NCBI GenBank assembly: GCA_016176525.1
Contig: JACOWZ010000003.1
Span: forward strand, 385,000-448,999
Source: Candidatus Colwellbacteria bacterium
Lineage (GTDB): Bacteria; Patescibacteriota; Minisyncoccia; UBA6257; Colwellbacteraceae
Length of the DNA stretch: 64,000 nt
Direction: 5' to 3'
Shown here: positions 1-59,826 of the stretch, piece after piece
Position numbering within the stretch: the stretch's first letter is position 1
Layout: every line of letters begins with the position of its first letter
The notes under the pieces: model-generated
Seen by the model: the letters and a program-made list of their open reading frames with translations, nothing else
Database searches by the model: none
Told to the model about the DNA's origin: nothing
Position numbers and translations under genes: made by a program

Positions 1-1881
1 ATGATGAGTGTTAATCATCCAGACGTTTTAGATTTTATTACCTGTAAGAAAGTAGAAGGCGATATAAGAAACTTTAATATTTCTGTAAAAGTTACAGATG
101 AGTTTATGCGAGCTGTTTCAGAAGGTTCTAAAAAGCCATGGCTATGTGAGTGGAAAGGCAAAAAGATGAAACCGAGGAGAGTACTCCGGCGGCCAAACGG
201 CGCGGTTTACGGCGTGGAAGAGCTTGATATGACTGCCTCGCAAATTTTGGATGAGATTGTAGATTATGCGTGGTTAAACGGTGAGCCTGGAATTGTTTTT
301 ATTGACGAGGTTAATCGCACAAATCCTCTTCCCCAGATGGGTTCTATCCAATGCTCTAATCCGTGCGGAGAGCAATTTTTGCACCCGTACGACAATTGCA
401 ACCTTGGTTCTATAAACTTGGCTCCGTTTGCAAAAAATGGAGCAGTGGACTGGAAGCGGTTAAAGTTTGTAACCCAAGTAGCAACGAGAATGCTTGATAA
501 CGTTATAGATCGCTTTAATTTTCCGGTTGAGGCGGTAACCGAGCTTGCGCGCAAGAATCGCCGCATAGGGTTAGGTATTATGGGCTTTGCCGATATGCTC
601 TATCAGTTGGGGATTGCCTACAATTCCAAAGAAGGTATTGCAATGGCCGAGAAAACTATGAAGTTTATAAACGATACTGCGCATGAGTATTCTGCAAAGC
701 TTGCTAAAGAAAAGAGTGCATTCCCAAATTGGAAGGGCAGTATTTACGGCAAACGTAAGATTAAAATTAGAAATGCAGCTTTGACGACTGTCGCGCCAAC
801 TGGCTCTATATCTATGATGCTTGATACATCTTCCGGAATTGAGCCGAACTTTGCTCTCGCGTTTATCAAACAAGACAAGGACGGATTACAATATCCATAC
901 CTCAATAAATATTTCGATGCCGAACTTCACAAGCGTAAATTCAGCGAAGCGAGAATCAAAGAAATCCGAGACGAGGTTATAAAAACCGGCACAGTTCAAC
1001 ATATGAAGGATTTGCCGCAGAATCTACGCGACACGTTCGTTGTCGCTATGGATATTTCCGGCGAAGAGCATATGAAGGCCCAAGCCGCTTTCCAAAAACA
1101 TGTTGACAACTCAATATCCAAAACTATAAACCTGCCTAATAGCGCCACCAAAGAAGACGTGAAAGCTGGTTACGTTACTGCTTGGAAGTTGAAGTGTAAG
1201 AGTTCTACAGTTTACAGAGACGGTAGCCGTAATGTTCAGATTTTAAACATCGGCACATCGGACAAAGTCGTTTCTACGATTGAAGATCCGCTAAAACGCA
1301 AAGCGCCGATGAATTTAGAGGTAGATAAAGGCAAGATTGCGCCGCGCGTGAGGCCAGAGGTTATGCAGGGTAGAACTTACAAAATTAAAACCGGCTACGG
1401 CAATTTGTTTGTAACGATCAATAACGATGAGGCTGGTGCGCCGTTTGAGGTCTTCGCCGCAATTGGCAAGAGTGGTGGGTTTTTCCAAGAGCAGAGCGAG
1501 GCAATTTGCAGGCTAATATCACTTGCACTTCGCTCTGGAATTAAGACAGAAGAAATTATAGATATGTTAAAAGGCATTCGCGGGCCAATGCCAGTTATGA
1601 GCGACAAGGGCACTATTTTCTCTTTGCCGGATGCAATAGCTCGCGTTTTGGAAGAGCACGCAATGGGGTTTGGTGTGTCTTCTGGCGCGCAAGAGGCATT
1701 ACCTGTTCCGCAAACCGTTTTGGAATCCGCAGCTAAAAATGAGGTTATTTCTCCAAAAGCGCAGAAAAGAGAAATGGCAGATTTTGGCCACATGCCCGGG
1801 TGCCCGGATTGCGGCCAGTCACTTGTGATGGCAGAAGGATGTATATCATGCAAATCCTGTGGCTTTACGCGTTGTCTTTAG
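1..1881 (+). CDS. nrdJ: Class II (adenosylcobalamin-dependent) ribonucleotide reductase, C-terminal ~626 aa; the 5' end lies outside the window
   Basis: The ORF is open to position 1, so the first Met is an artefact. It has an SNPCGEQ active-site-type motif, an ISKTINLP/TVYRDGSR region and a C-terminal Cys-rich zinc ribbon (CPDCGQ...CISCKSCG). Confidence 0.8.
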   Translation: MMSVNHPDVLDFITCKKVEGDIRNFNISVKVTDEFMRAVSEGSKKPWLCEWKGKKMKPRRVLRRPNGAVYGVEELDMTASQILDEIVDYAWLNGEPGIVFIDEVNRTNPLPQMGSIQCSNPCGEQFLHPYDNCNLGSINLAPFAKNGAVDWKRLKFVTQVATRMLDNVIDRFNFPVEAVTELARKNRRIGLGIMGFADMLYQLGIAYNSKEGIAMAEKTMKFINDTAHEYSAKLAKEKSAFPNWKGSIYGKRKIKIRNAALTTVAPTGSISMMLDTSSGIEPNFALAFIKQDKDGLQYPYLNKYFDAELHKRKFSEARIKEIRDEVIKTGTVQHMKDLPQNLRDTFVVAMDISGEEHMKAQAAFQKHVDNSISKTINLPNSATKEDVKAGYVTAWKLKCKSSTVYRDGSRNVQILNIGTSDKVVSTIEDPLKRKAPMNLEVDKGKIAPRVRPEVMQGRTYKIKTGYGNLFVTINNDEAGAPFEVFAAIGKSGGFFQEQSEAICRLISLALRSGIKTEEIIDMLKGIRGPMPVMSDKGTIFSLPDAIARVLEEHAMGFGVSSGAQEALPVPQTVLESAAKNEVISPKAQKREMADFGHMPGCPDCGQSLVMAEGCISCKSCGFTRCL

Positions 1882-2108
1882 AAATTAAGCTATAACTTTG
1901 TCGCTTCGTCGTCGATATACACGCAGAGCGCGTATAATCTCCTCCTTGCTTCTCGTTCTAACTTAATTTCTTTTGACATCGCAAATTACTATTCTTCGGA
2001 GTGTCTTAGTGTTCATAAAAATTTCTTAGCATTTTTTAGACATTATAGTCTTTACCGGATTTTTGTAGTTTTGTATATAAAAATCCCCAGATTTATCTAG
2101 GGACTAAA

Positions 2109-2417
2109 CTAGCTGCGCCACCAATGTGATCGGGTTGTCTCGGCATAAAATCCGCCGATTTCAAAGCTCTCTTTAGGCTTTTCAGTAACCCAATCGCCAT
2201 TTGGGCCGACCCACATCTTTTCTCCACCAGTCTCAGATTCATAGCCGAATGATTTGTGCGACATAACGCCGTTACAGTTTGGGCATCGCCATTCTGTATC
2301 CATTGCTTCAGGGGGCATGCCTTCAATTGAAACAATGGTCTTGCAATGCTCGCAAATACCCAGACTCTCTAGTCCGACTGGTTTAGCCGATGTTAATGTG
2401 CTTTGATTCTTATCCAA
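2109..2417 (-). CDS. Small zinc-ribbon protein, hypothetical
   Basis: 102 aa ORF with CEHCKT...CPNCNG Cys4 pattern; no recognisable family. Confidence 0.35.
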   Translation of the reverse strand: MDKNQSTLTSAKPVGLESLGICEHCKTIVSIEGMPPEAMDTEWRCPNCNGVMSHKSFGYESETGGEKMWVGPNGDWVTEKPKESFEIGGFYAETTRSHWWRS

Positions 2418-2468
2418 TTCTACCGCTCCGTTGATGATAGGTTAATGTATAGAACTTTAATTTTCAAG

Positions 2469-3158
2469 CTATGCACCAAATTTATTGAGCGGGCATTTGT
2501 CGTGTGCGTGGGGTTTTGCGGCACAGTAGGTACGGCCATAGTCTACTAGGCGATAGTTTAATTCCGGCCATTCTTTTTTAGGTAATAATTCCATAAGGTC
2601 CCGTTCAATTTTTACGGGGTTTTTGTGTGCGGAGAGCCCCAGGCGTTGTGATAGGCGCATAACGTGCGTGTCTACTGCAATGCCCTCCACAATGCCGTAT
2701 GCATTGTGTAGCACAATATTGCCGGTTTTGCGCGCTACGCCGGGGAGTTCTAAGATTTCTTCCATTGTATTTGGCACCTTGCCGCCGAATTTTTCTTTAA
2801 CAAGTTTAGCGGAGGCCAAGATATTCTTCGTTTTATTGCGATATAGGCCGATTTCTTTTACGTCTTGTTCAAACTCCTCTTGTGTTGCGTTTACATAATC
2901 ATCCAGTTTTTTATATTTCTTAAAAAGCCGCGTGGTTACTTCATTTACCTTTTTGTCTGTTGTCTGCGCGGACAAAATTGTGGCAACCAGCAATTCCCAC
3001 GGATTTTTCCAATTAATTAGTGCAACTTTTGTTCTTGGAAATAGTTTTTTTAAGATTCTTAATATCTCTTTTGCTCGCTTTTTTCTTTTTTCTATAGACA
3101 TACCCACTTTAGTTTTTATCTTTAACCTTACCTTCAACCAGGTGTTATGATCAATCAT
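2469..3158 (-). CDS. nth: Endonuclease III (DNA-(apurinic or apyrimidinic site) lyase); the true start is probably the internal Met near 3101 (MSIEKRKK...)
   Basis: HhH-GPD region (LPGVARKTGNIVL), C-terminal 4Fe-4S Cys cluster (CAAKPHAHDKCPL). The longest-ORF start lies inside the 24-bp palindrome. Confidence 0.85.
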   Translation of the reverse strand: MIDHNTWLKVRLKIKTKVGMSIEKRKKRAKEILRILKKLFPRTKVALINWKNPWELLVATILSAQTTDKKVNEVTTRLFKKYKKLDDYVNATQEEFEQDVKEIGLYRNKTKNILASAKLVKEKFGGKVPNTMEEILELPGVARKTGNIVLHNAYGIVEGIAVDTHVMRLSQRLGLSAHKNPVKIERDLMELLPKKEWPELNYRLVDYGRTYCAAKPHAHDKCPLNKFGA

Positions 3159-3164
3159 AACACC
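3141..3164. repeat. 24-bp perfect palindrome GGTGTTATGATCAATCATAACACC (copy A)
   Basis: Read directly. Identical 11-bp arms recur at 3756, 28534 and 49017; only the central 2 bp vary. Confidence 0.9.
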
Positions 3165-3421
3165 GTTCTTTCGTTTTTTAATAGTTTTATTTTAGTTCTT
3201 GTGCCGCGGTTATATCCTCCAATTTTACCATCAGAACGTATTACTCGGTGGCAGGGGATGGAGGAGTTGTAATTTTTGTTCAAAATATTGCCCACAGCCC
3301 GGGCCGCGCGCGCATTACCTGCCCGCCGCGCCACCTCTTTGTAGGTTAGAGTTTTGCCGCGCGGAATTTTCTTTACAATTGCGAGTACCCTTTCTCTAAA
3401 CCTTGTCATATTTAGAAGCAA
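3155..3421 (-). CDS. Stand-alone methylated-DNA-protein-cysteine methyltransferase DNA-binding domain protein (COG3695-like)
   Basis: 88 aa; PCHRVI active-site motif with the Cys retained; HTH-like upstream segment. It overlaps nth and truB by a few nt, so it is probably co-transcribed. Confidence 0.7.
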   Translation of the reverse strand: MLLNMTRFRERVLAIVKKIPRGKTLTYKEVARRAGNARAARAVGNILNKNYNSSIPCHRVIRSDGKIGGYNRGTRTKIKLLKNERTVL

Positions 3422-4052
3422 ATTCTTTTAGTGTTAGAGAATTGATGCGGGTGAATTTGCCGACGCGGGTGCGCTCTAGCGCAGCTAGGTAGCCGCCGAC
3501 GCCGAGCTTTGCGCCAATGTCGCGGGCAAGCGAGCGAATGTAAACACCCTTACCGGTTTTTACGCGAATTTCCAAATATGGCCACTTGTATTTAATAAGT
3601 GCAATTTTTTTAATTTCAACTGGCCTTGGTTTTAACGCAGGAGTCTTGCCTTTGCGGGCCAATTGGTAAGCACGCTTGCCTTTGAGTTTTATTGCGCTGT
3701 ACGCCGGCGGGGTTTGCATAATTTTATCCTCAAAGGTTTTTAGCACTTTCTTTACGGTGTTATGATTGATCATAACACCGGTCTCTTCACGCTGCATCGG
3801 GCCTTCTGCATCATCTGTTGCGCTTGTGTACCCAAGTTTTATTTTTGCGATGTATTCTTTATCTGCGGCTACCTGCTTTTCTAGTTTGCGAGTATATTTA
3901 CGGCTGATTGCGACAACAAGCACCCCCTTTGCTAAAGGGTCTAGCGTACCGGCATGTCCGATTCGGCGTTCGCCGGTTATTTTGCGGAGTTTGTTTATTA
4001 TGTCGTGCGAAGTAGGGCCAGTGGGCTTATAAATACCAAAAATACCTTCCAA
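3396..4052 (-). CDS. truB: tRNA pseudouridine(55) synthase TruB
   Basis: GHAGTLDPLAKGVL catalytic motif; QTPPAYSAIKLKGKRAYQLARKG region. Contains the in-frame 8-aa insert GVMINHNT encoded by the palindrome. Confidence 0.9.
   Translation of the reverse strand: MEGIFGIYKPTGPTSHDIINKLRKITGERRIGHAGTLDPLAKGVLVVAISRKYTRKLEKQVAADKEYIAKIKLGYTSATDDAEGPMQREETGVMINHNTVKKVLKTFEDKIMQTPPAYSAIKLKGKRAYQLARKGKTPALKPRPVEIKKIALIKYKWPYLEIRVKTGKGVYIRSLARDIGAKLGVGGYLAALERTRVGKFTRINSLTLKEFASKYDKV
3756..3779. repeat. 24-bp palindrome copy B (GGTGTTATGATTGATCATAACACC), in-frame inside truB
   Basis: Read directly. Confidence 0.9.
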
Positions 4053-4054
4053 AG

Positions 4055-4921
4055 CTATTGTATTTCGTAGCGTACCGTAACGTTAATTATTACTTCTTGC
4101 GAGCCCGGTTCTATAGTGGGCGCAACTTTGCCGGCTTCTTCTGCAACTGCTGCGTCAAAGGAGCGTATTGCAAAAGGCGAGTAATATCCTTCTTCTATTG
4201 ATATAATTTTACCTATCCTGAAACCCGCTGCTTTTGCAGTGGCCTCTGCCTGCACGCGAGCTTTTTCTATTGCCATAGCGCGAGCTTGGTTTTGCAACTC
4301 TGCTGGGTCGTCTATCGTAAAGTTTAGGCTGGATACTGTGTTTGCGCCGTTTTCAACCACTCCGCCCAATAATGCGCTAATTTTCTCAAAATCGCGCACT
4401 TTTACCGAAACAGTTTGGTTTATTTCGTAACCAACAATTTCTGCCGGTGGGCACACGGAGTCGTTAGTTATAACCGTGCTCTCTGCACCGCCAAATCCGC
4501 TAACGCCGCTACCCATGGGGCTAAGAATGCGCGGATAAGATGGTGTGCAGTATTGGTAACGCGGGCTTACGTTGTAGCTCTCGGTTTTTATATCTTCGCT
4601 CTTTACACCCTGTGATTTAACAAAGTCTATTGCTTTGTTTGCTTTTTCAGTGTTGGTTTGTTGAAGCTCTGCCAAATCCAAGCCGCCTTGAGTTGTTATG
4701 CTAAATGTAAATGTTGCAATGTCGGGCACTGCCACCGCTTTGCCTTCGCCAGATGCCGAAAAGCTTCTAAATGATCCCGGTTCAATTTGCTTTGCATACG
4801 AGTCAGCAAATTTTGTTGCCGCGAATGCAAACATTAATATTGCTAATATACCCACTACGCCTAGGGCGTTTTTTATATTGTTTGTCATATCGCTATTATA
4901 CCAAACTATAACGTTCACCAC
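4055..4921 (-). CDS. SIMPL/DUF541-family periplasmic protein (26 kDa periplasmic immunogenic protein-like)
   Basis: N-terminal TM/signal; KARVQAEATAKAAGFRIGKIISIEE-type SIMPL signature. Confidence 0.6.
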   Translation of the reverse strand: MVNVIVWYNSDMTNNIKNALGVVGILAILMFAFAATKFADSYAKQIEPGSFRSFSASGEGKAVAVPDIATFTFSITTQGGLDLAELQQTNTEKANKAIDFVKSQGVKSEDIKTESYNVSPRYQYCTPSYPRILSPMGSGVSGFGGAESTVITNDSVCPPAEIVGYEINQTVSVKVRDFEKISALLGGVVENGANTVSSLNFTIDDPAELQNQARAMAIEKARVQAEATAKAAGFRIGKIISIEEGYYSPFAIRSFDAAVAEEAGKVAPTIEPGSQEVIINVTVRYEIQ

Positions 4922-51286: not shown

Positions 51287-51357
51287 GCGAGTGTAGTACA
51301 GTGGCAGTACGCGACCTTCCCAAGGTTGAGACGAGGGTTCGATTCCCTTCACTCGCT
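51287..51357 (+). tRNA. tRNA-Gly (CCC)
   Basis: Acceptor GCGAGTG/CACTCGC, anticodon loop TTCCCAA, T-arm GAGGGTTCGATTCCCTT. Confidence 0.8.
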
Positions 51358-51530
51358 CAAATGTTATAATATTTGTATGGATGGCAAGACTAAAGAATTT
51401 ATAGATGCGGCGCTTACAGACAAGCCAACGTCTTTTAAAGACAGTTTACTGCGCAGGCCTGTTAGTCTTGGGAATATAGCAGACGCGTTTCGGATTGGTT
51501 TGCGGTCTATTTTTAAAAAGTCTAAAAAAA

Positions 51531-51806
51531 CTACGGAGCAGGTTCCTCCACAGGAGCAGACTCCTCCGCAGGAGCAACAACCTCCGCAGGTAAAGTAATG
51601 CCAAGCTTCGGCGCTATTTTTTCATAACCTTCTGTGTTTAAGTGTATAAGCTCTGCGCGAATTTGCTCTTGGTCTATGCTGAATATTTTGTTGATTCTGT
51701 CGGATACAAACCGATATGTTGCATATGTTCCTAATGATATAAATATTGCCAAAAATAGAGTAATAACCCTATACAACCATCTGTTTTTTTCTTTTTGATT
51801 ATTCAT
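51531..51806 (-). CDS. Small membrane protein, hypothetical (pilus-cluster associated)
   Basis: Single TM, Pro/Glu/Ala-rich tail. Confidence 0.3.
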   Translation of the reverse strand: MNNQKEKNRWLYRVITLFLAIFISLGTYATYRFVSDRINKIFSIDQEQIRAELIHLNTEGYEKIAPKLGITLPAEVVAPAEESAPVEEPAP

Positions 51807-52386: not shown

Positions 52387-53793
52387 TTAGTATAAAGTTT
52401 GCGGGTTTTTAACTTTAAACCTTACGTTGAATGGAATGTTTGTGCGCAGTTCCAGATTTTGTATCGGTATCTCAACTTCCGTTGCAAACTCGGATTCTTC
52501 TAGGGTTTTTCTAAACTCGCTTAATATTTCTCTTGTAGATGCTTTGCCCTCTAAAACTAGAGTTTCTGTAGGATTGCCGATTGTAAGTTTGGTAATAGTT
52601 ATACCGGCTGGCAGTGCGGCGCGGAGAGTTTCTAAAAACCTGCTCCAGCGAGGGCTAGTGGAGTCAATCTCTGCGAGTTGGCCAGTTAGGCTGTTAAACG
52701 CCAAAACCCTTTTTTCTAGGGCAATGTTTTCTACACTTCTTTCTTGGATAATTGCCAAAGTTTCTGTTTTTACGCCTTCTTGTATTATGGCAAGAAGCGC
52801 CCACGAACCCAAGAAAACAGCGCTAAATATTATTGAAACTCCGGTTATTACGTTTGATACAAGCCTTATAAAGGCGAGCCTTTTTTGCTCTTCGTAGGCA
52901 GTTTCTGTGCCCACTGCCATAAGACTGATTAACTCGTCGTCGCTGCGGGGGATTAAGCCGCGGAGAGCCGCGCCGAGGGCCCCGAGCCATTCTTTTGCTT
53001 TGCCTGTCAGTCTTTGGTCGGCGGCGAATTTTTCCGGGAGTTTTAAGTTTTCTGCAGAAATTGTCGCCGAGAACAGCATTTTTGTGGATTCGCTGAAGTC
53101 TGAGAATCTTTTTATTGCCGAATTCAATTCATCTGCGGACAGGTTTGCCGGCAAAATGTGCGCAAATTTAACAGATTTGTGTTGTATAACAGCAAAAGTT
53201 TGAGTTGTTTTGTCGGGTAAAATAACAAGTGTTGGCGCATCTGTGCCGATCTCTGCAACGCGCGCGGCTGCAAGCACCCGCGGTTCCATGGCTATTATTT
53301 TTAGCTTTGCGTTTGTTATCGCTTTTATGTATGCGTTTGCGTGGTTCTTGCGGATTAATGCGAGTAATAGCTCGTTTGTGTTTTTTCCCTCAACGCGTTC
53401 CCAGTCAATATATGCGTCTTCTGGCGGAACCGGCAAATTAAAACCCGATGCTGTTGCCATTGCCTCTTGCAGTTTGCCTCTAGTAATGCTTGCTGGGAAT
53501 GTAAAAGTTCTAAAATATACTTTTGCCTCTGGTATAGAGACTATTACGTTTGCAGGGCGGGCGGAAAGCTTTTCTAAAACTTTATTTATTGCCTCGGTTA
53601 GCTTTTCAGGCTGTTTTAGTTCGCCGTCTGCGACTATGTCTTCTTGTAGCGGCTCTTCTGCGAGTTCTTTTATAAAAAGTTTGCCGCTCTTGTCGCGTGC
53701 GAGCCAGGCAAGCCGCACCGCGTCGTCTGCAATATCTAGTCCGGCAATCGCTTCTTCAATTGTCAGGAGTTTTACTATCTCACTCATTAACAT
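52387..53793 (-). CDS. pilM: Type IV pilus assembly protein PilM fused to a PilN-like TM/coiled-coil domain
   Basis: Actin-like PilM N-terminus (LDIADDAVRLAWL...KELAEEPLQEDIVADG), internal TM ITGVSIIFSAVFLGSWALLAII. Confidence 0.7.
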   Translation of the reverse strand: MLMSEIVKLLTIEEAIAGLDIADDAVRLAWLARDKSGKLFIKELAEEPLQEDIVADGELKQPEKLTEAINKVLEKLSARPANVIVSIPEAKVYFRTFTFPASITRGKLQEAMATASGFNLPVPPEDAYIDWERVEGKNTNELLLALIRKNHANAYIKAITNAKLKIIAMEPRVLAAARVAEIGTDAPTLVILPDKTTQTFAVIQHKSVKFAHILPANLSADELNSAIKRFSDFSESTKMLFSATISAENLKLPEKFAADQRLTGKAKEWLGALGAALRGLIPRSDDELISLMAVGTETAYEEQKRLAFIRLVSNVITGVSIIFSAVFLGSWALLAIIQEGVKTETLAIIQERSVENIALEKRVLAFNSLTGQLAEIDSTSPRWSRFLETLRAALPAGITITKLTIGNPTETLVLEGKASTREILSEFRKTLEESEFATEVEIPIQNLELRTNIPFNVRFKVKNPQTLY

Positions 53794-53885
53794 TAATTCT
53801 ACACTATTTTACTCTGTGCGGTTATTAACATTCTTACCTAAGTCTTAGAGTCGTTTTATGCTATAATTTTCTCGTTAAATTAGAA

Positions 53886-54560
53886 ATGCAAAATTCAACC
53901 AAAAAAGGGTTCACATTGCTTGAGCTCTTGATTGTTATTACCATAATTTCCATTCTCTCGGTTATTTTGATTATTGCGTTAAACCCTGCGGAAACTCTTC
54001 GCAAAGCCCGCGATGTTCAGCGAATATCTGATTTAGCATCTCTCAAAAACGTGATCGCTATTTATATAACTGAGAATGGCGGAGACAATAGTTTTCCTGC
54101 TTTAGATGGTGATCAGACAAATGATGACAATGCTGATTGTGAGGGTGGTGGTGGGACTGAAAGGGTCTGGCTCAGTGCGGATGGAAATGCAACCCCTGAT
54201 ACAAGTATATATGCAAATACGGCCGTTTATACTGACGGTGATAACGGTGATTTCGCAGTTGATGGCACGGGTTGGATTCCGGTTGATTTCGAGGCTCTTA
54301 CTGGCGGTTCACCTATCTCTGGTTTGCCTATTGACCCATCAAATAGCAACGAAGTTACTCTTGGTACTGCAGTTAGCGACACTACGTTGGTATATACTTA
54401 TGTTTGTAGTGACGCAAATACTACATTTGAAATAAATGCAGTTCTTGAAAGTGCTGATTTCGTCAATGGTGGTCCTAATGATAAAGAAGGAAGAGACGGT
54501 GGTAATAATGACAATTTATATGAGGTTGGCACAGAGTTGGATATTGTAAACAGCCGATAG
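53886..54560 (+). CDS. Type IV pilin (prepilin-type N-terminal cleavage/methylation domain)
   Basis: KKGFTLLELLIVITIISIL class III signal; divergently oriented from pilM. Confidence 0.75.
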   Translation: MQNSTKKGFTLLELLIVITIISILSVILIIALNPAETLRKARDVQRISDLASLKNVIAIYITENGGDNSFPALDGDQTNDDNADCEGGGGTERVWLSADGNATPDTSIYANTAVYTDGDNGDFAVDGTGWIPVDFEALTGGSPISGLPIDPSNSNEVTLGTAVSDTTLVYTYVCSDANTTFEINAVLESADFVNGGPNDKEGRDGGNNDNLYEVGTELDIVNSR

Positions 54561-54709
54561 TGGTTGACTTTATTTTAGGTCCGTTTGCGATTTGGAGTAG
54601 TTAGATTTTTTGTTTTCGGGTCTGTGTTAGTATGTTAGTTGCTATTATTGGGCACAATCAAACCCTAACGGGTTTCTAGCTTTTGTAATATGTAATATAA
54701 TTCTAGGCA

Positions 54710-56119
54710 ATGAATTCTTTAACCAAATATATCTTGGTTAGTGCAGCCAGTTTGTTAGCTATAATTACTCTTAGTATTTTTGTCTTTAATCTTTTCACAG
54801 AACAAGATAATAAAGCGGATTCCACAAAAAATCATAACTTTATTAGGAATGAGTCTAATATCGAGACTATTTCTACTCCAGTAGAAAAAACAGATGGTTT
54901 AACTTTAGAAGAAGCGTTTAATCAAACTAACTTAGGAAGTAGGATGTCTTCTAGAGCTTGCTCGAGAGATCTGAATAAAGTAATATATTGTGTTCTTCCT
55001 AGGGAAGTAGGTAAGCATTCAGTATCAAACATACTACTTTTGAGGTCAGATAATGATGGTAAGGATTGGTCAGAAGAAATCGTACCCACTGGAATTTATA
55101 GTACCAACACTTTACCGGCTATAACAATTGACTCGCAAAATAATATTCATATAGTCTGGATTGGTATAGATTTAACTGGATACCTAGATAAACAGGTATT
55201 TACTATCGAGTGGTACGAGGCTCTTCACAAAAGATTCAACCTTTTGCATATAACTAAAACCAACTCTAACTGGGGGAATGTATACAAACTAGGTGATAGC
55301 GGTGGGGATATTAACCCATCGATAGCGTTAGACTCAAGAAATGCTATCCATGTTGTTTGGTTTAATACTTTAAATAGAACTCTATTATACAGAAAATTAT
55401 CTGCAGGGGTTTGGGGTGCTACAGGGGTGTTGGCTTCTAATATAAATTTTCCTAGAAAAACCGCTACTTTAGCTGTCGATTTACAAAATAATATTCATGT
55501 TGTTTGGGCAGATGATGATATTTATTATAAAGAAATTAGGGATGGTATTTTGGAAGAAACAGTTGATATAGATACAAGGCCCGAAATATATATAGAGGTC
55601 CCCTCGCTGTTTGTAGGGGCGTTTGGGGATTTTAATCCCTCAATTGCAATAGATTCGCAAAATAATATACACATTGTTTGGATATCTAGTGGTCTTCTTG
55701 AAGGCAGACAAGCGCCGCAAGAAGATGTAATTATGTATCAAAAGAAAGATAAGAATGGGTGGCTTGAACAACCCATAAATGTGGCCTATGGGTGGGATAA
55801 TCCCCAAGGCAAACCTTTGATTTGCTTGGATTCTAGAGATAATATTTACATAAGTTGGTATTCTTACGACATATATAATCGTGGCCCACTTAGGGGTGGC
55901 ACTTCGCCGCGAATAGTTTCTGATGAATTTATAACATTACCATTAAAGCAAAAAATTCCTATATCTACTTGTAGTATTTGGCCTCAAAAAGATGGCGTTT
56001 CAGCCAATATTCCTAACTACGGCTATGAGATTTTGGAAACGGAAAATGGCATCCCTTCTGTTTTTATAGGAACCGAATCAGTGCAGTTACCAGAGTATGT
56101 GGATAAAGCCGGAGGATAG
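54710..56119 (+). CDS. Secreted repeat protein (beta-propeller-like, five D-x-QNNIH-V-VW repeats); AT-rich, probably an inserted cassette
   Basis: N-terminal TM; repeats TIDSQNNIHIVW / LDSRNAIHVVW / VDLQNNIHVVW / IDSQNNIHIVW / LDSRDNIYISW. Confidence 0.55.
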   Translation: MNSLTKYILVSAASLLAIITLSIFVFNLFTEQDNKADSTKNHNFIRNESNIETISTPVEKTDGLTLEEAFNQTNLGSRMSSRACSRDLNKVIYCVLPREVGKHSVSNILLLRSDNDGKDWSEEIVPTGIYSTNTLPAITIDSQNNIHIVWIGIDLTGYLDKQVFTIEWYEALHKRFNLLHITKTNSNWGNVYKLGDSGGDINPSIALDSRNAIHVVWFNTLNRTLLYRKLSAGVWGATGVLASNINFPRKTATLAVDLQNNIHVVWADDDIYYKEIRDGILEETVDIDTRPEIYIEVPSLFVGAFGDFNPSIAIDSQNNIHIVWISSGLLEGRQAPQEDVIMYQKKDKNGWLEQPINVAYGWDNPQGKPLICLDSRDNIYISWYSYDIYNRGPLRGGTSPRIVSDEFITLPLKQKIPISTCSIWPQKDGVSANIPNYGYEILETENGIPSVFIGTESVQLPEYVDKAGG

Positions 56120-56210
56120 CAGGGTTGCACAGAGAGTATAATAAGAACATGAAAAAATATTTACTCATAATCCTTCCGGTTTTGGTTTTTGTGTTTGGGG
56201 TGAATAGTCT

Positions 56211-56876
56211 ATGATTGAATTTATATTAGGTCCGTTTGCGGTTTGGGCACCATATGTTTTTTTGTTTGGAGCGCTTGCATCGGCTGTGTTTTTTTACATT
56301 AAAAAATTTTCTGCAAAGTGGTATTGGGTTTTAGTTTGGGCAACGCTTGGGTTTAAGGCACTTTTTGCAGCGTTCTTATCTTGGGGGCAATATTTTGTGT
56401 GGCTACGCGGCGGGGAGTTTACACAGACGTTTTTAAACACGCCGCTTAGTGCTGATACGCCCGACACCGTGCTTACTTTTGTAACCAAGCTTTTTCGCCC
56501 GCTTTTCGAAACAGAAAAAGGATATTTTCTTTTTTACGCTTATAGTAGATTCTGGATAAATCTAATTGTTCTTATTGTTGCCGCTATCGGCTTTTGGCTG
56601 TTCTTAAAAATGCTTAAAAAATACAGAGCCAGATTTTTTGACACAGGCGAGGTAGAGCTAGGGTTCTTGATGGCATTAGTCGCAGGTTGGCCGGGATTTT
56701 TGGTTTTTGTGCCGCTTGTGTTTTTGGCGGTGGTGTTTGTATCAATATTCCGCGGAATATTCCTTAAAGAGGCATATACAACGCTGGGATGGCCAATGCT
56801 CTTAGCCGCACTTCTTACCTTAATTTGGGGAAGTAGCTTAATAGACTTGCTGAATTTGGGAGTTTTCCGCATATAG
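56211..56876 (+). CDS. Polytopic membrane protein in the pilus locus (prepilin-peptidase position, but the A24 motifs are not evident)
   Basis: Six to seven TM helices; lacks the GGDVKL motif. Confidence 0.45.
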   Translation: MIEFILGPFAVWAPYVFLFGALASAVFFYIKKFSAKWYWVLVWATLGFKALFAAFLSWGQYFVWLRGGEFTQTFLNTPLSADTPDTVLTFVTKLFRPLFETEKGYFLFYAYSRFWINLIVLIVAAIGFWLFLKMLKKYRARFFDTGEVELGFLMALVAGWPGFLVFVPLVFLAVVFVSIFRGIFLKEAYTTLGWPMLLAALLTLIWGSSLIDLLNLGVFRI

Positions 56877-56894
56877 AATGCTATAATTTAATAT

Positions 56895-58610
56895 ATGCTT
56901 CACTTGGCTCCAGAAAAGTTAAAAAAGCTGCTTACCGAGTCTGGTGTTGTTGAAGATGCAAACTTTTCTTCCGCAGAAAAAGAGGCGCAAACGCAAGGTA
57001 GAGATGTGGCGAGTGTCTTAATATCCAACGGCGCAATTCCAGAACATTATTTTACCGAGCTTATAGCAAAGTATGCCAGTGTGCCTATTGTCGGTTTGGT
57101 GGGCGTAAAGATTCCATCAACAACCTTAGAGCTAATACCGGAGACCTATGCGTACTCCAAAAATGTGGCGGCGTTTGAATATAAAAAAGGAGACTTCGTA
57201 AAAGTTGCGATGCTGGACCCATTTGATTACGAAACGCTGGAGTTTTTAAGGGTACACATCGGTCTTAAGGTAATTCCGCATGTTACAACCAAAAGCGGTT
57301 TGCAAAACGCACTTAAGCAATATAAAGAAAAGCTGGGTAAAGAATTTAGCGAGATTATAAAAGAAAGCGTTGAGAAATCTATGTCGCTAACTGGCGAAGC
57401 AGACTTGGCTAAGGTTGCAGAAGCAGTGCCAGTGGTCTCGACACTCAAGAGCATAATTGAATACGCTATCAGCTTAAACTCTTCTGATATTCACTTTGAG
57501 CCATTTGATAAAAATTTGGTTGTGCGTTTTAGAATAGACGGGGTGCTTCGCGAGATTTTTGATTTGCCAAAAGCCATAGAGCCAACAATAGTGGCGCGCA
57601 TAAAAATACTTGCTAATTTACAGATAGATGAGCACCGCGTACCGCAGGACGGCAGGTTTAAGTTTGATGTGGGCGGCAAAGAGGCTGTTGATATTCGCGT
57701 TAGCATTATTCCGGTTCTCTATGGCGAAAAGGCAGAGATGAGGCTTTTGCGTAGTTCTTCTAGGCCGATTTCTTTAGAAGACTTGGGGTTGTCGTCCAAG
57801 GCAGTGCTAATTGTACGCGATGAGATTCAAAAACCGCACGGAATGATTTTGTCTACCGGCCCAACCGGCAGCGGTAAAACTACAACGCTCTATGCTATTT
57901 TGCATATATTAAACACGTCGAAGGTAAATATTACTACAATTGAAGACCCTATTGAGTACGAAGTGCCGGGTATAAACCAAATACAAGTTAACCCCAAAGC
58001 AAAAGTAACATTTAGCACGGGGCTGCGCTCTATTTTGCGGCAAGACCCGAATATTATAATGGTGGGTGAAATTCGCGATTCAGAGACTGTGGCAATAGCG
58101 ATACAATCGGCATTAACGGGCCACTTGATGCTATCCAGCTTACACACAAACGATGCGCCTGCTGCAATTCCGCGGCTTATAGACATGGGGGCGGCACCGT
58201 TTTTGCTTGCATCCACTATAAATTTGGTTATAGCACAGCGGCTTGTGCGCAAAATTTGCGACACTTGCATCGGCTCATTTGGAACAACACAGCAAATAAA
58301 GCGTCTGATAGAGATACAATTAGAGCTTACCGGCCACAAATATGACGAAAGCGTTATTCCAAAAACTTTGTATAAAGGAGCCGGTTGCAATGCATGCGGA
58401 GACACGGGGTATAGAGGGCTAATTGGCGTTTTTGAAGTGTTTAGAGTAACCGATGTTATCCGCCAGCTTATGTTAAAGAGCGCCTCCGCTGGAGAACTGA
58501 AGAAAGAAGCAATAAAAGAAGGAATGGTTACGCTTTTTGAAGATGGACTGGAAAAAGCAAAGGCCGGAGTAACAACAATAGAAGAAGTTCTCCGCGTTAT
58601 GCAAGAATAA
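56895..58610 (+). CDS. pilB: Type IV pilus assembly ATPase PilB (GspE family)
   Basis: Walker A LSTGPTGSGKTTTLYA, Asp box, His box, tetracysteine CDTC...CNACGD. Confidence 0.9.
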   Translation: MLHLAPEKLKKLLTESGVVEDANFSSAEKEAQTQGRDVASVLISNGAIPEHYFTELIAKYASVPIVGLVGVKIPSTTLELIPETYAYSKNVAAFEYKKGDFVKVAMLDPFDYETLEFLRVHIGLKVIPHVTTKSGLQNALKQYKEKLGKEFSEIIKESVEKSMSLTGEADLAKVAEAVPVVSTLKSIIEYAISLNSSDIHFEPFDKNLVVRFRIDGVLREIFDLPKAIEPTIVARIKILANLQIDEHRVPQDGRFKFDVGGKEAVDIRVSIIPVLYGEKAEMRLLRSSSRPISLEDLGLSSKAVLIVRDEIQKPHGMILSTGPTGSGKTTTLYAILHILNTSKVNITTIEDPIEYEVPGINQIQVNPKAKVTFSTGLRSILRQDPNIIMVGEIRDSETVAIAIQSALTGHLMLSSLHTNDAPAAIPRLIDMGAAPFLLASTINLVIAQRLVRKICDTCIGSFGTTQQIKRLIEIQLELTGHKYDESVIPKTLYKGAGCNACGDTGYRGLIGVFEVFRVTDVIRQLMLKSASAGELKKEAIKEGMVTLFEDGLEKAKAGVTTIEEVLRVMQE

Positions 58611-58611
58611 T

Positions 58612-59826
58612 ATGTTATTTACTTACGAAGCGTTTAATGTAAATGGGCAGACTGTTAGGGGCGAGATAGATGCCAAGTCGGAAAAAGACGTGGTTTTGTA
58701 TTTGGAAGGGCGCGGGCTAATTCCATCGCGCGTACACCCAAAACATAAAGCAGAAAAGAAAGGAGTTCTGTCCACTCAATTTTTTGCAAAAATCAGCGAA
58801 ACAGACAAGATATTTTTGGTGCGCAATCTTGCAACAGCAATAAAAGCGGGTTTGAGCTTAAACGACGCGTTGGAAATTGTATTACAAGACACAAAAAAGG
58901 GGCTTATGCGCGATGTGCTAACTCATGTGCGCGACAGCGTGCGCGAGGGCCACACCTTATCTGATTCTTTTATGCCGTATAAAGATTTATTCCCGGGCAT
59001 TTTTATAGGACTTTTGCGTGCGGGGGAATCCGGCAGCCAGCTAGACAAGGTTTTGGAGGAGCTATCAAGGCACATGGTTAAGGAATACTCGCTTATTAAG
59101 AAAATTAAGTCTGCTATGGTCTACCCGATACTTTTGCTAACGGTTGGTTTTGCGGTGGTTGTGTTTCTTTTAACTTTTGTCTTGCCGCGCCTGACTGGTA
59201 CATTCCAACTCTCCGGCGTGGAATTGCCGCTTATAACCCGTGTTTTGGTTGTTATAAGCGATACTTTAAGCGGTAATCCGATTGTTACCACGTTGGTTTT
59301 TTTGGGGCTTACGTCGGGAATATTTTTAGGTGCAAGAACGAGAGCCGGCAAAAAAATCCGCAACAAGATTTTTATGAAGACTCCGGTGGTCAATGACTTA
59401 ATACGTAAGGTTGCACTGGTGCGGTTTACGCGCACACTAGGCAGCTTAATAACGGGCGCGACTCCAATACTTGAAGCATTGCAAACTTCTGCTGGCGCGG
59501 TCGCAAACGATGAGTATAAAGAGGCGATTTTGGACTCTGCGGGCAAAGTGCAGGTCGGAGTCACTTTATCTAAAGCGATGAAGAATTATCCGGAGCTTTT
59601 CCCACTACTATTAACTAATTTGGTGGCGGTGGGTGAGAAAACCGGCAGTTTGGAGTATGTGCTTGCGACTTTCTCTAATTTCTACGAAGAAGAAGTTGAT
59701 ACAAAACTAAAAGATCTAACAACACTCTTTGAGCCGATACTTTTAATGATTATGGGCCTTATTGTCGGTGGAATTGCAGTTGCGGTACTGTTGCCTATTT
59801 ACCAATTAGTAGGACGCTTTACATGA
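58612..59826 (+). CDS. pilC: Type IV pilus platform protein PilC (GspF family)
   Basis: Two GspF repeats, three TM segments. Confidence 0.9.
   Translation: MLFTYEAFNVNGQTVRGEIDAKSEKDVVLYLEGRGLIPSRVHPKHKAEKKGVLSTQFFAKISETDKIFLVRNLATAIKAGLSLNDALEIVLQDTKKGLMRDVLTHVRDSVREGHTLSDSFMPYKDLFPGIFIGLLRAGESGSQLDKVLEELSRHMVKEYSLIKKIKSAMVYPILLLTVGFAVVVFLLTFVLPRLTGTFQLSGVELPLITRVLVVISDTLSGNPIVTTLVFLGLTSGIFLGARTRAGKKIRNKIFMKTPVVNDLIRKVALVRFTRTLGSLITGATPILEALQTSAGAVANDEYKEAILDSAGKVQVGVTLSKAMKNYPELFPLLLTNLVAVGEKTGSLEYVLATFSNFYEEEVDTKLKDLTTLFEPILLMIMGLIVGGIAVAVLLPIYQLVGRFT

Follow-up and report, generated by a model that had tools for sequence, protein, structure and literature searches.

In this study, we analysed a window of 64,000 nt from a metagenome-assembled genome of an ultrasmall Candidatus Colwellbacteria bacterium (assembly GCA_016176525.1, contig JACOWZ010000003.1), and found in its type IV pilus locus a 1615-nt interval (54596-56210, plus strand; GC 0.358) that is missing between the pilin and membrane-protein genes of related lineages. 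The interval lies between the major type IV pilin gene (53886-54560, plus strand) and the gene for a polytopic membrane protein (56211-56876, plus strand), and its sole full-length open reading frame (ORF) encodes a predicted beta-propeller protein, hereafter the passenger. The interval is very probably a lineage-specific acquisition, the 36 nt after the pilin stop being a dead relic of the start of the membrane-protein gene. For the route of acquisition, we give about even chances to an event of the homology-facilitated illegitimate recombination (HFIR) type, in which one-sided homologous recombination is combined with illegitimate recombination.

The two ends of the interval are marked by a 35-nt direct repeat (repeat family D3). 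Its left copy at 54561-54595 (TGGTTGACTTTATTTTAGGTCCGTTTGCGATTTGG) and its right copy at 56212-56246 (TGATTGAATTTATATTAGGTCCGTTTGCGGTTTGG), both on the plus strand, are identical at 31 of 35 positions, exactly as stated in a preliminary description of this DNA made from the sequence alone. An exact 15-nt core (TTAGGTCCGTTTGCG; 54575-54589 in the left copy) occurs just twice in the 64 kb, once in each copy, and the runner-up among ungapped matches of the 35-mer, over the whole window and both strands, reaches 22/35. The binomial probability of at least 31 matches in 35 is ~9e-15 per pair and ~1e-7 over all pairs within 5 kb. The repeat is sharply bounded by the start codon on the left and by the end of codon 12 on the right. 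Upstream of the two start codons the copies have zero similarity (anchored score 0), and past codon 12 local and anchored alignments gave just a run of TTTTTTGTTT in register, without significance (p ~0.05-0.2). The right copy lies within codons 1-12 of the intact membrane-protein gene, which read MIEFILGPFAVW. Its left counterpart is a stub of the same gene (54560-54604, plus strand), composed of 12 codons homologous to membrane-gene codons 1-12 (VVDFILGPFAIW), then SS and a stop codon at 54602-54604. The upstream copy had been described as out of frame and running into a stop; the stop is there, but the copy is not simply out of frame, since it forms a 14-codon ORF of its own (VVDFILGPFAIWSS, then stop) from a GTG that overlaps the pilin TAG (TAGTG). 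Another candidate repeat, a 15/19 match between the 3' end of the pilin gene and 56116-56134 (family D10), was rejected because it is at chance level (57/500 shuffles).

The stub encodes the motif FxxGPFxVW, which the family alignment places at the N-terminus of the membrane-protein family, and, judged by its sequence, it is a genuine 5' fragment of a membrane-protein gene. It shares 31/36 nt with the intact gene of its own genome, the five differences including the start codon, and orthologous 5' ends from other genera have 20-28/36 nt in common with the two copies. The stub is thus nearest to the genome's own membrane-protein gene, by a margin that is not large. Since FxxGPFxVW is conserved even at the DNA level, the 31/36 is less exclusive than it appears, and the identity of the 15-nt core is expected anyway because it covers those codons that are best conserved in the gene (GPFA). 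Two alleles would account for the five differences in 36 nt, given that orthologs differ at 8-16/36; the two copies may therefore be a donor and a resident allele rather than a fresh duplication, with differences that could predate the event. The other reading considered in the preliminary description, a conserved N-terminal signal, holds in part, within the membrane-protein family; no other gene of the window carries the core.

Chance similarity, a signal common to several genes of the locus, or an artefact of assembly is hardly credible as the origin of the repeat. The conservation of the family motif, with up to 28/36 nt shared between genera, speaks for such an origin; against it stand the distance from 31/35 to the next best match, the restriction of the core to two sites, and the position of the stub where no gene exists. 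Moreover, the locus was assembled identically and independently from two runs, SRR12113430 and SRR12113384, and hence does not stem from faulty assembly. When the pilin, passenger, and membrane protein were looked up as exact proteins, only the same sequence from these two runs came back. We also regard it as very unlikely that the upstream copy is functional, i.e., that it is a short upstream ORF or leader coupled to the pilin stop through TAGTG, or an RNA element, whose similarity is kept by selection. Its 12 codons are in frame behind a GTG that overlaps the pilin stop, and, of the five differences, three either affect the start codon or are conservative. However, no stub-like ORF was found 3' of the pilin gene in any relative examined, an Rfam search of 53700-57000 returned no RNA element, and 36 nt with five changes are too short to demonstrate purifying selection. 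To our knowledge, there is no described mechanism for such a functional upstream copy.

The pilin-to-pilB interval was compared among relatives. Seven related lineages (L001/L098, L082, L083 and its copies, L085/86, L088, L095, and L120) have an empty site, in which a strong terminator comes immediately 3' of the pilin stop, then a TATAAT box 10-17 nt 5' of the membrane-gene ATG, and then the membrane-protein gene itself, with a spacer of 52-143 nt between the two genes. The cassette is thus not common to all relatives. At the same junction another lineage, L087, carries a different cargo (1581-4916), encoding an exported protein of 1111 aa with an SH3_3 domain; upstream of it lie the pilin terminator and a very AT-rich spacer of ~250 nt. 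A stub or duplicated junction was looked for in L087 and not found. In a neighbour-joining tree of PilB, the window is the sister of a mostly empty clade (L082/L083/L085/L087/L092/L120), with L001/L098, which is empty, and L002 outside. Because the outgroup L001/L098 is also empty, one gain is more parsimonious than two or more losses. The empty sites and the tree together bear out the view of the preliminary description that an extra single-gene segment was inserted between the pilin and membrane-protein genes.

The opposite polarity, in which the cargo is ancestral and was lost in the relatives while the stub came from an old internal partial duplication or rearrangement, appears improbable to us. 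It gains something from the position of the window lineage, which is sister to the main empty-site clade and not nested in it, and from a tiny ORF relic at the right junction (see below) that, together with L087, suggests long-standing cargo at this site. On the other hand, the emptiness of L001/L098 would require at least two losses, the passenger deviates in GC and has no homolog above 32% identity even in relatives, and in the relatives the terminator and promoter spacer are intact, with no scars of a deletion.

The interval is AT-rich and carries one gene, as had been described, with a moderate difference in GC: 0.358 against 0.426 for the window. The comparison of genes pointed the same way, in that the passenger gene, with a GC of 0.360 and a third-position GC (GC3) of 0.284, is low in both relative to the gene means of 0.427 +/- 0.038 and 0.397 +/- 0.064 (z ~-1.8); it is the fifth lowest among 70 ORFs and the lowest among those encoding more than 200 aa. 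No transposase, integrase, or recombinase domain was found in 54596-56210 or among the neighbouring genes (the pilM-pilN fusion, the pilin, pilB, pilC, and the minor pilins). The inverted-repeat listing contains no pair of terminal inverted repeats at ~54596 and ~56210, and there is no tRNA at the insertion site.

These results bear on the proposal of the preliminary description that a cassette had been inserted with duplication of its target junction. Such a mobile cassette would have left a long target-site duplication from a cut staggered by ~36 nt at codon 12-13 of the membrane-protein gene; in a variant, a site-specific integrase would have used an attachment (att) core inside the gene, with the element supplying a substitute 5' end. 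The insert is indeed flanked by direct repeats with an exact 15-nt core, the target gene is intact, and a different cargo sits at the same site in L087. Still, we consider a mobile cassette unlikely. Transposon target duplications are short and initially perfect, typically 2-14 bp. An imperfect repeat of 35-36 nt (4/35 mismatched) with its edge at a start codon, where a staggered cut would land by luck only, therefore does not fit a transposon-type target duplication. Neither a transposase nor an integrase lies in or near the 1.6-kb segment, terminal inverted repeats are lacking, the junction in L087 is not duplicated, viral contigs gave no relative of the passenger protein (the one sequence of the segment compared with them), and no tRNA lies at the site. 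The proposal is therefore not upheld. The arrangement does resemble integrative elements bounded by left and right attachment sites (attL/attR) in having flanking direct repeats, a substitute gene end, and one non-functional gene fragment. Unlike those elements, which are phages or islands in tRNA or protein genes, the segment has no integrase and consists of 1.6 kb with one cargo gene, and its repeats are imperfect and begin exactly at a start codon.

For the acquisition, the scenario that we favour would be that DNA from a related strain recombined into the locus. The donor strain would already have carried the cargo, i.e., the propeller gene together with the 5' remnant of a second gene for an exported protein, ahead of its own membrane-protein gene. 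At the right end, homologous recombination would have occurred within the membrane-protein gene or pilB, the conserved flank being the likely homologous anchor, whereas at the left end HFIR or an equivalent one-sided event would have made an illegitimate joint inside the resident membrane-protein gene after codon 12. The first 12 codons of the resident would thereby have been stranded beside the pilin stop, and the membrane-protein gene would have stayed intact because the incoming 5' end replaced the resident one. Recombination between two versions of the membrane-protein gene with different upstream contexts would also explain why the start codon is exactly where the repeat has its left edge. 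A mirror-image event, in which the incoming DNA brought the pilin and the membrane-gene stub and was anchored on the left in pilMN, would be equally compatible.

HFIR is used here as defined in PMC3240628. It is described for Acinetobacter, Streptococcus pneumoniae, and Pseudomonas stutzeri during natural transformation. The locus resembles it in that foreign DNA lies beside a conserved anchor, with one homologous joint that is invisible and one abrupt joint in a resident gene, and in that mobile-element genes are not needed. Of the features expected of such an event, a conserved right anchor (the membrane-protein gene and pilB) and an abrupt end of similarity after stub codon 12 are present. 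Unlike classical HFIR, which usually deletes recipient DNA, the event would have left a duplicated gene start here, and HFIR is what we infer from this layout. If so, the event adds one more, fairly ordinary case to a known class of recombination scar.

Several points weigh against this interpretation. The data do not separate HFIR from the single crossover of a circular fragment (Campbell type), nor from an old staggered-cut duplication with later divergence. The stub abuts the pilin stop, and in view of the 52-143 nt spacer of the relatives at least one further change, either loss of the spacer or a lineage-specific overlap, has to be assumed. Transformation in this organism is itself an assumption. 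The GC deviation is just ~1.8 standard deviations, and the polarity of gain rests on a neighbour-joining tree of one gene from relatives that are 58-69% identical. In the collections searched, the closest relatives are 53% identical in the membrane protein and 69% in PilB, and neither the donor arrangement nor the true empty allele was seen.

At the right junction, the sequence suggests that more than one event took place at this site. A tiny ORF of 21 codons (56149-56214, plus strand; MKKYLLIILPVLVFVFGVNSL, then stop) has a TGA that overlaps the membrane-gene ATG (ATGA), and a TATAAT -10 box (56137-56142, plus strand) lies 6 nt 5' of it, which is likely the present-day promoter for the membrane-protein gene. 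There is a resemblance between the tiny ORF and MKIYIFAFAVLVLSFGVNSS, the signal peptide of the L087 cargo (DNA local alignment score 17, reached by 5/500 shuffles); none of the other fetched loci contains the motif. The tiny ORF is probably what remains of a lost cargo gene, namely its 5' end with the signal peptide, and would now serve to drive expression of the membrane-protein gene. Since its likeness to the L087 signal peptide would make it a remnant of older cargo, a single event would not account for the whole junction. Between the stub and the passenger gene, a consensus scan alone gave a terminator-like hairpin, AAACCC-TAAC-GGGTTT with a T-rich tail (54660-54675, plus strand), which is the first hairpin 3' of the window pilin gene.

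The passenger gene (54710-56119, plus strand; HYS87_02555) encodes 469 aa and is characterized by an AlphaFold2 (AF2) model, Foldseek comparisons, and its repeats. A TATAAT -10 box at 54696-54701 (plus strand), 8 nt 5' of the ATG, suggests that it has its own promoter with a leaderless-type start. The AF2 model, whose confidence score pLDDT (predicted local distance difference test) is 70.9 overall and 80-95 across the propeller, shows a hydrophobic helix (residues 2-33), a low-confidence linker of ~45 residues, the propeller (residues ~80-390), and a low-confidence C-terminal tail. Five clear units of the type D-x-x-N-x-I-H/Y-x-V/S-W, at residues 141, 208, 257, 315, and 374, agree with the five propeller-like repeats described before, and a degenerate sixth unit at residue 87 can be added to them. 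In Foldseek, the model matches the PLL/PHL lectins of Photorhabdus, CV39L of Chromobacterium, and bacterial sialidases (E 5e-10 to 1e-7), PLL-type lectins being the best matches (E 5e-10; template modelling (TM) score 0.60-0.66 on the target); structure prediction thus answers the earlier question of a propeller or sialidase-like fold with a beta-propeller that has lectin- and sialidase-like neighbours. The protein had also been called secreted, and it does appear to be exported, but it is better understood as anchored in the membrane by its N-terminal helix.

At the sequence level the passenger has no close relative. The best match is 28% identical, and none exceeds 32% among 5.8 billion proteins. 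Distant matches carry Pfam BNR_4, BNR_2, BNR, or SBBP, and a profile built from the homologs matches sialidase chains weakly; on the passenger protein itself, no Pfam family, BNR included, matched at threshold. There is a lone degenerate Asp-box, SDNDGKDW, and no RIP/FRIP motif was found in the sequence. At the N-terminus, MNSLTKYILVSAASLL, neither a class III signal peptide nor N_methyl was detected, while the true pilins of the locus do match. The passenger protein, which was the only sequence of the segment searched against viral contigs, has no relatives there, and a PHROG search gave a single weak match, to a family of unknown function. From the model we infer a membrane-anchored, exported, extracytoplasmic beta-propeller of six repeats with a lectin/sialidase-type fold, which most likely binds or trims glycans on the surface of the host or of the cell itself. 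The homologs are not generally linked to pilus loci. One of them, P0016 (23% identical; L124/L125, 5001-6710), from another Patescibacterium, lies in a long stretch of unannotated small genes that are all read in the same direction, beside one encoding more than 1700 aa, and a prophage or a surface-protein island is possible there.

Known propellers offer several points of comparison. As in BNR propellers of the sialidase/GH33 type, the passenger has six repeats, and Foldseek aligns it with a P. gingivalis sialidase at E ~2e-9. GH33 sialidases contain FRIP/RIP and several S-x-D-x-G-x-T-W Asp-boxes, whereas the passenger has no RIP and a single degenerate Asp-box. PLL-type lectins, the best Foldseek matches, are seven-bladed with sugar sites between the blades; in the passenger, six repeats were found. 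The closest published analogue is, on the likeness of the two loci and folds, PilX2 of Nanosynbacter lyticus TM7x, a beta-propeller of a pilus locus that is PLL-lectin-like and has been proposed as a thin-pilus adhesin (PMC11623550). Like PilX2, the passenger is encoded in the type IV pilus locus of a Patescibacterium, has a beta-propeller fold with PLL-type lectins, CV39L, and carbohydrate hydrolases as structural neighbours, and has an N-terminal hydrophobic segment without a canonical prepilin signal. PilX2 differs in being heptabladed with RCC1 repeats, as opposed to the six BNR_4/sialidase-type repeats of the passenger, and the two are likened by description and not by sequence. Only by this analogy is it plausible that the passenger might be a pilus-associated adhesin, as the preliminary description had supposed.

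It is tempting, though distinctly speculative, to go further and regard the junction between the pilin and membrane-protein genes in Colwellbacteria-like Patescibacteria as a recurrent swap site. Exported host-interaction genes with their own promoters would be exchanged there through DNA uptake and one-sided recombination anchored on the membrane-protein gene or pilB, and the propeller, like PilX2, would bind glycans as an adhesin in concert with the pilus. The examples under this doubtful reading would be the propeller here, the SH3-containing 1111-aa protein in L087, and the relics of older cargo. For locating their hosts and staying attached to them, Patescibacteria depend on type IV pili, and little is known of how their host-binding repertoires change. 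The window provides a concrete case in which a pilus cluster seems to have gained a surface protein of the glycan-binding type without mobile-element machinery, and indicates the pilin-to-membrane-gene junction as a spot of turnover for such genes.

The membrane protein next to the pilin also merits closer attention. It has 221 aa (HYS87_02560; its gene and that of the passenger are both on a 644,793-bp contig) and belongs to a conserved, uncharacterised family of Patescibacteria with 503 representatives at E <= 1e-3, many of them located outside pilus loci. No Pfam, NCBIfam, or PDB sequence match was found for it, the PDB profile search being empty. Its AF2 model is confident (pLDDT 94.6), and the nearest fold is the GxGD protease FlaK. 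The invariant family motif is G-E-x-E-L-G...VGWP, in which a Glu occupies the position of the GxGD-protease Asp. Compared with Peptidase A24 (PilD and archaeal FlaK), the family thus has Glu in place of the catalytic Asp, and it lacks a conserved first Asp. Neither the window protein nor 34 relatives match Peptidase A24 (PF01478), and one distant family member gave Peptidase_A24 at E 0.0028, below the cut-off. With no sequence match and xxGE instead of GxGD, membership in Peptidase A24, which we considered, is not established. The fetched loci yielded no canonical PilD. One member of the family, P0204 (369 aa), is fused to an N-terminal vitamin K epoxide reductase (VKOR) domain (Pfam E 2e-20), and two others show weak DsbB matches, which may point to a connection with the oxidative folding of exported proteins.

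The remaining genes belong to the pilus cluster. The major pilin has 224 aa (Pfam N_methyl E 3.7e-8, TIGR02532), and its orthologs hold the same position in the relatives. Upstream, PilM and PilN domains are combined in one 468-aa ORF on the minus strand (52387-53793), and a pilM-pilN fusion of 466-487 aa is present in all related loci. Downstream follow the gene for the assembly ATPase PilB (56895-58610, plus strand; Pfam T2SSE E 1e-125; 58-69% identical to relatives) and pilC (58612-59826); the locus also contains minor pilins. A tRNA-Gly(CCC) gene (51287-51358), which does not adjoin the cassette, lies between a DivIC-like gene and the pilus genes and is overlapped by a mechanical ORF call at 51326-51598.

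The -10 boxes were located by direct search for TATAAT, a consensus sigma-70 scan being uninformative in that it gave fewer sites than in shuffled sequences. In addition to those described above, there is a box 18 nt 5' of the major pilin ATG (53862-53867, plus strand) and another before pilB (56882-56887, plus strand; ATG at 56895). The distance from TATAAT to ATG is 6-8 nt for the propeller gene, the tiny ORF, and pilB, and two of the boxes in the cluster are of the extended form TGCTATAAT. This pattern points to several separate promoters in the pilus cluster and to mRNAs that are for the most part leaderless. In some relatives, the pilus locus also contains a small gene of the 23S_rRNA_IVP family (four-helix-bundle, bAvd-like), found at 5707-6093 in L082, 5712-6077 in L083, and 7533-7898 in L120. 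The position of these inserts varies among the gap between the membrane-protein gene and pilB, a place after pilB, and a place after pilC, and forms a second variable spot.

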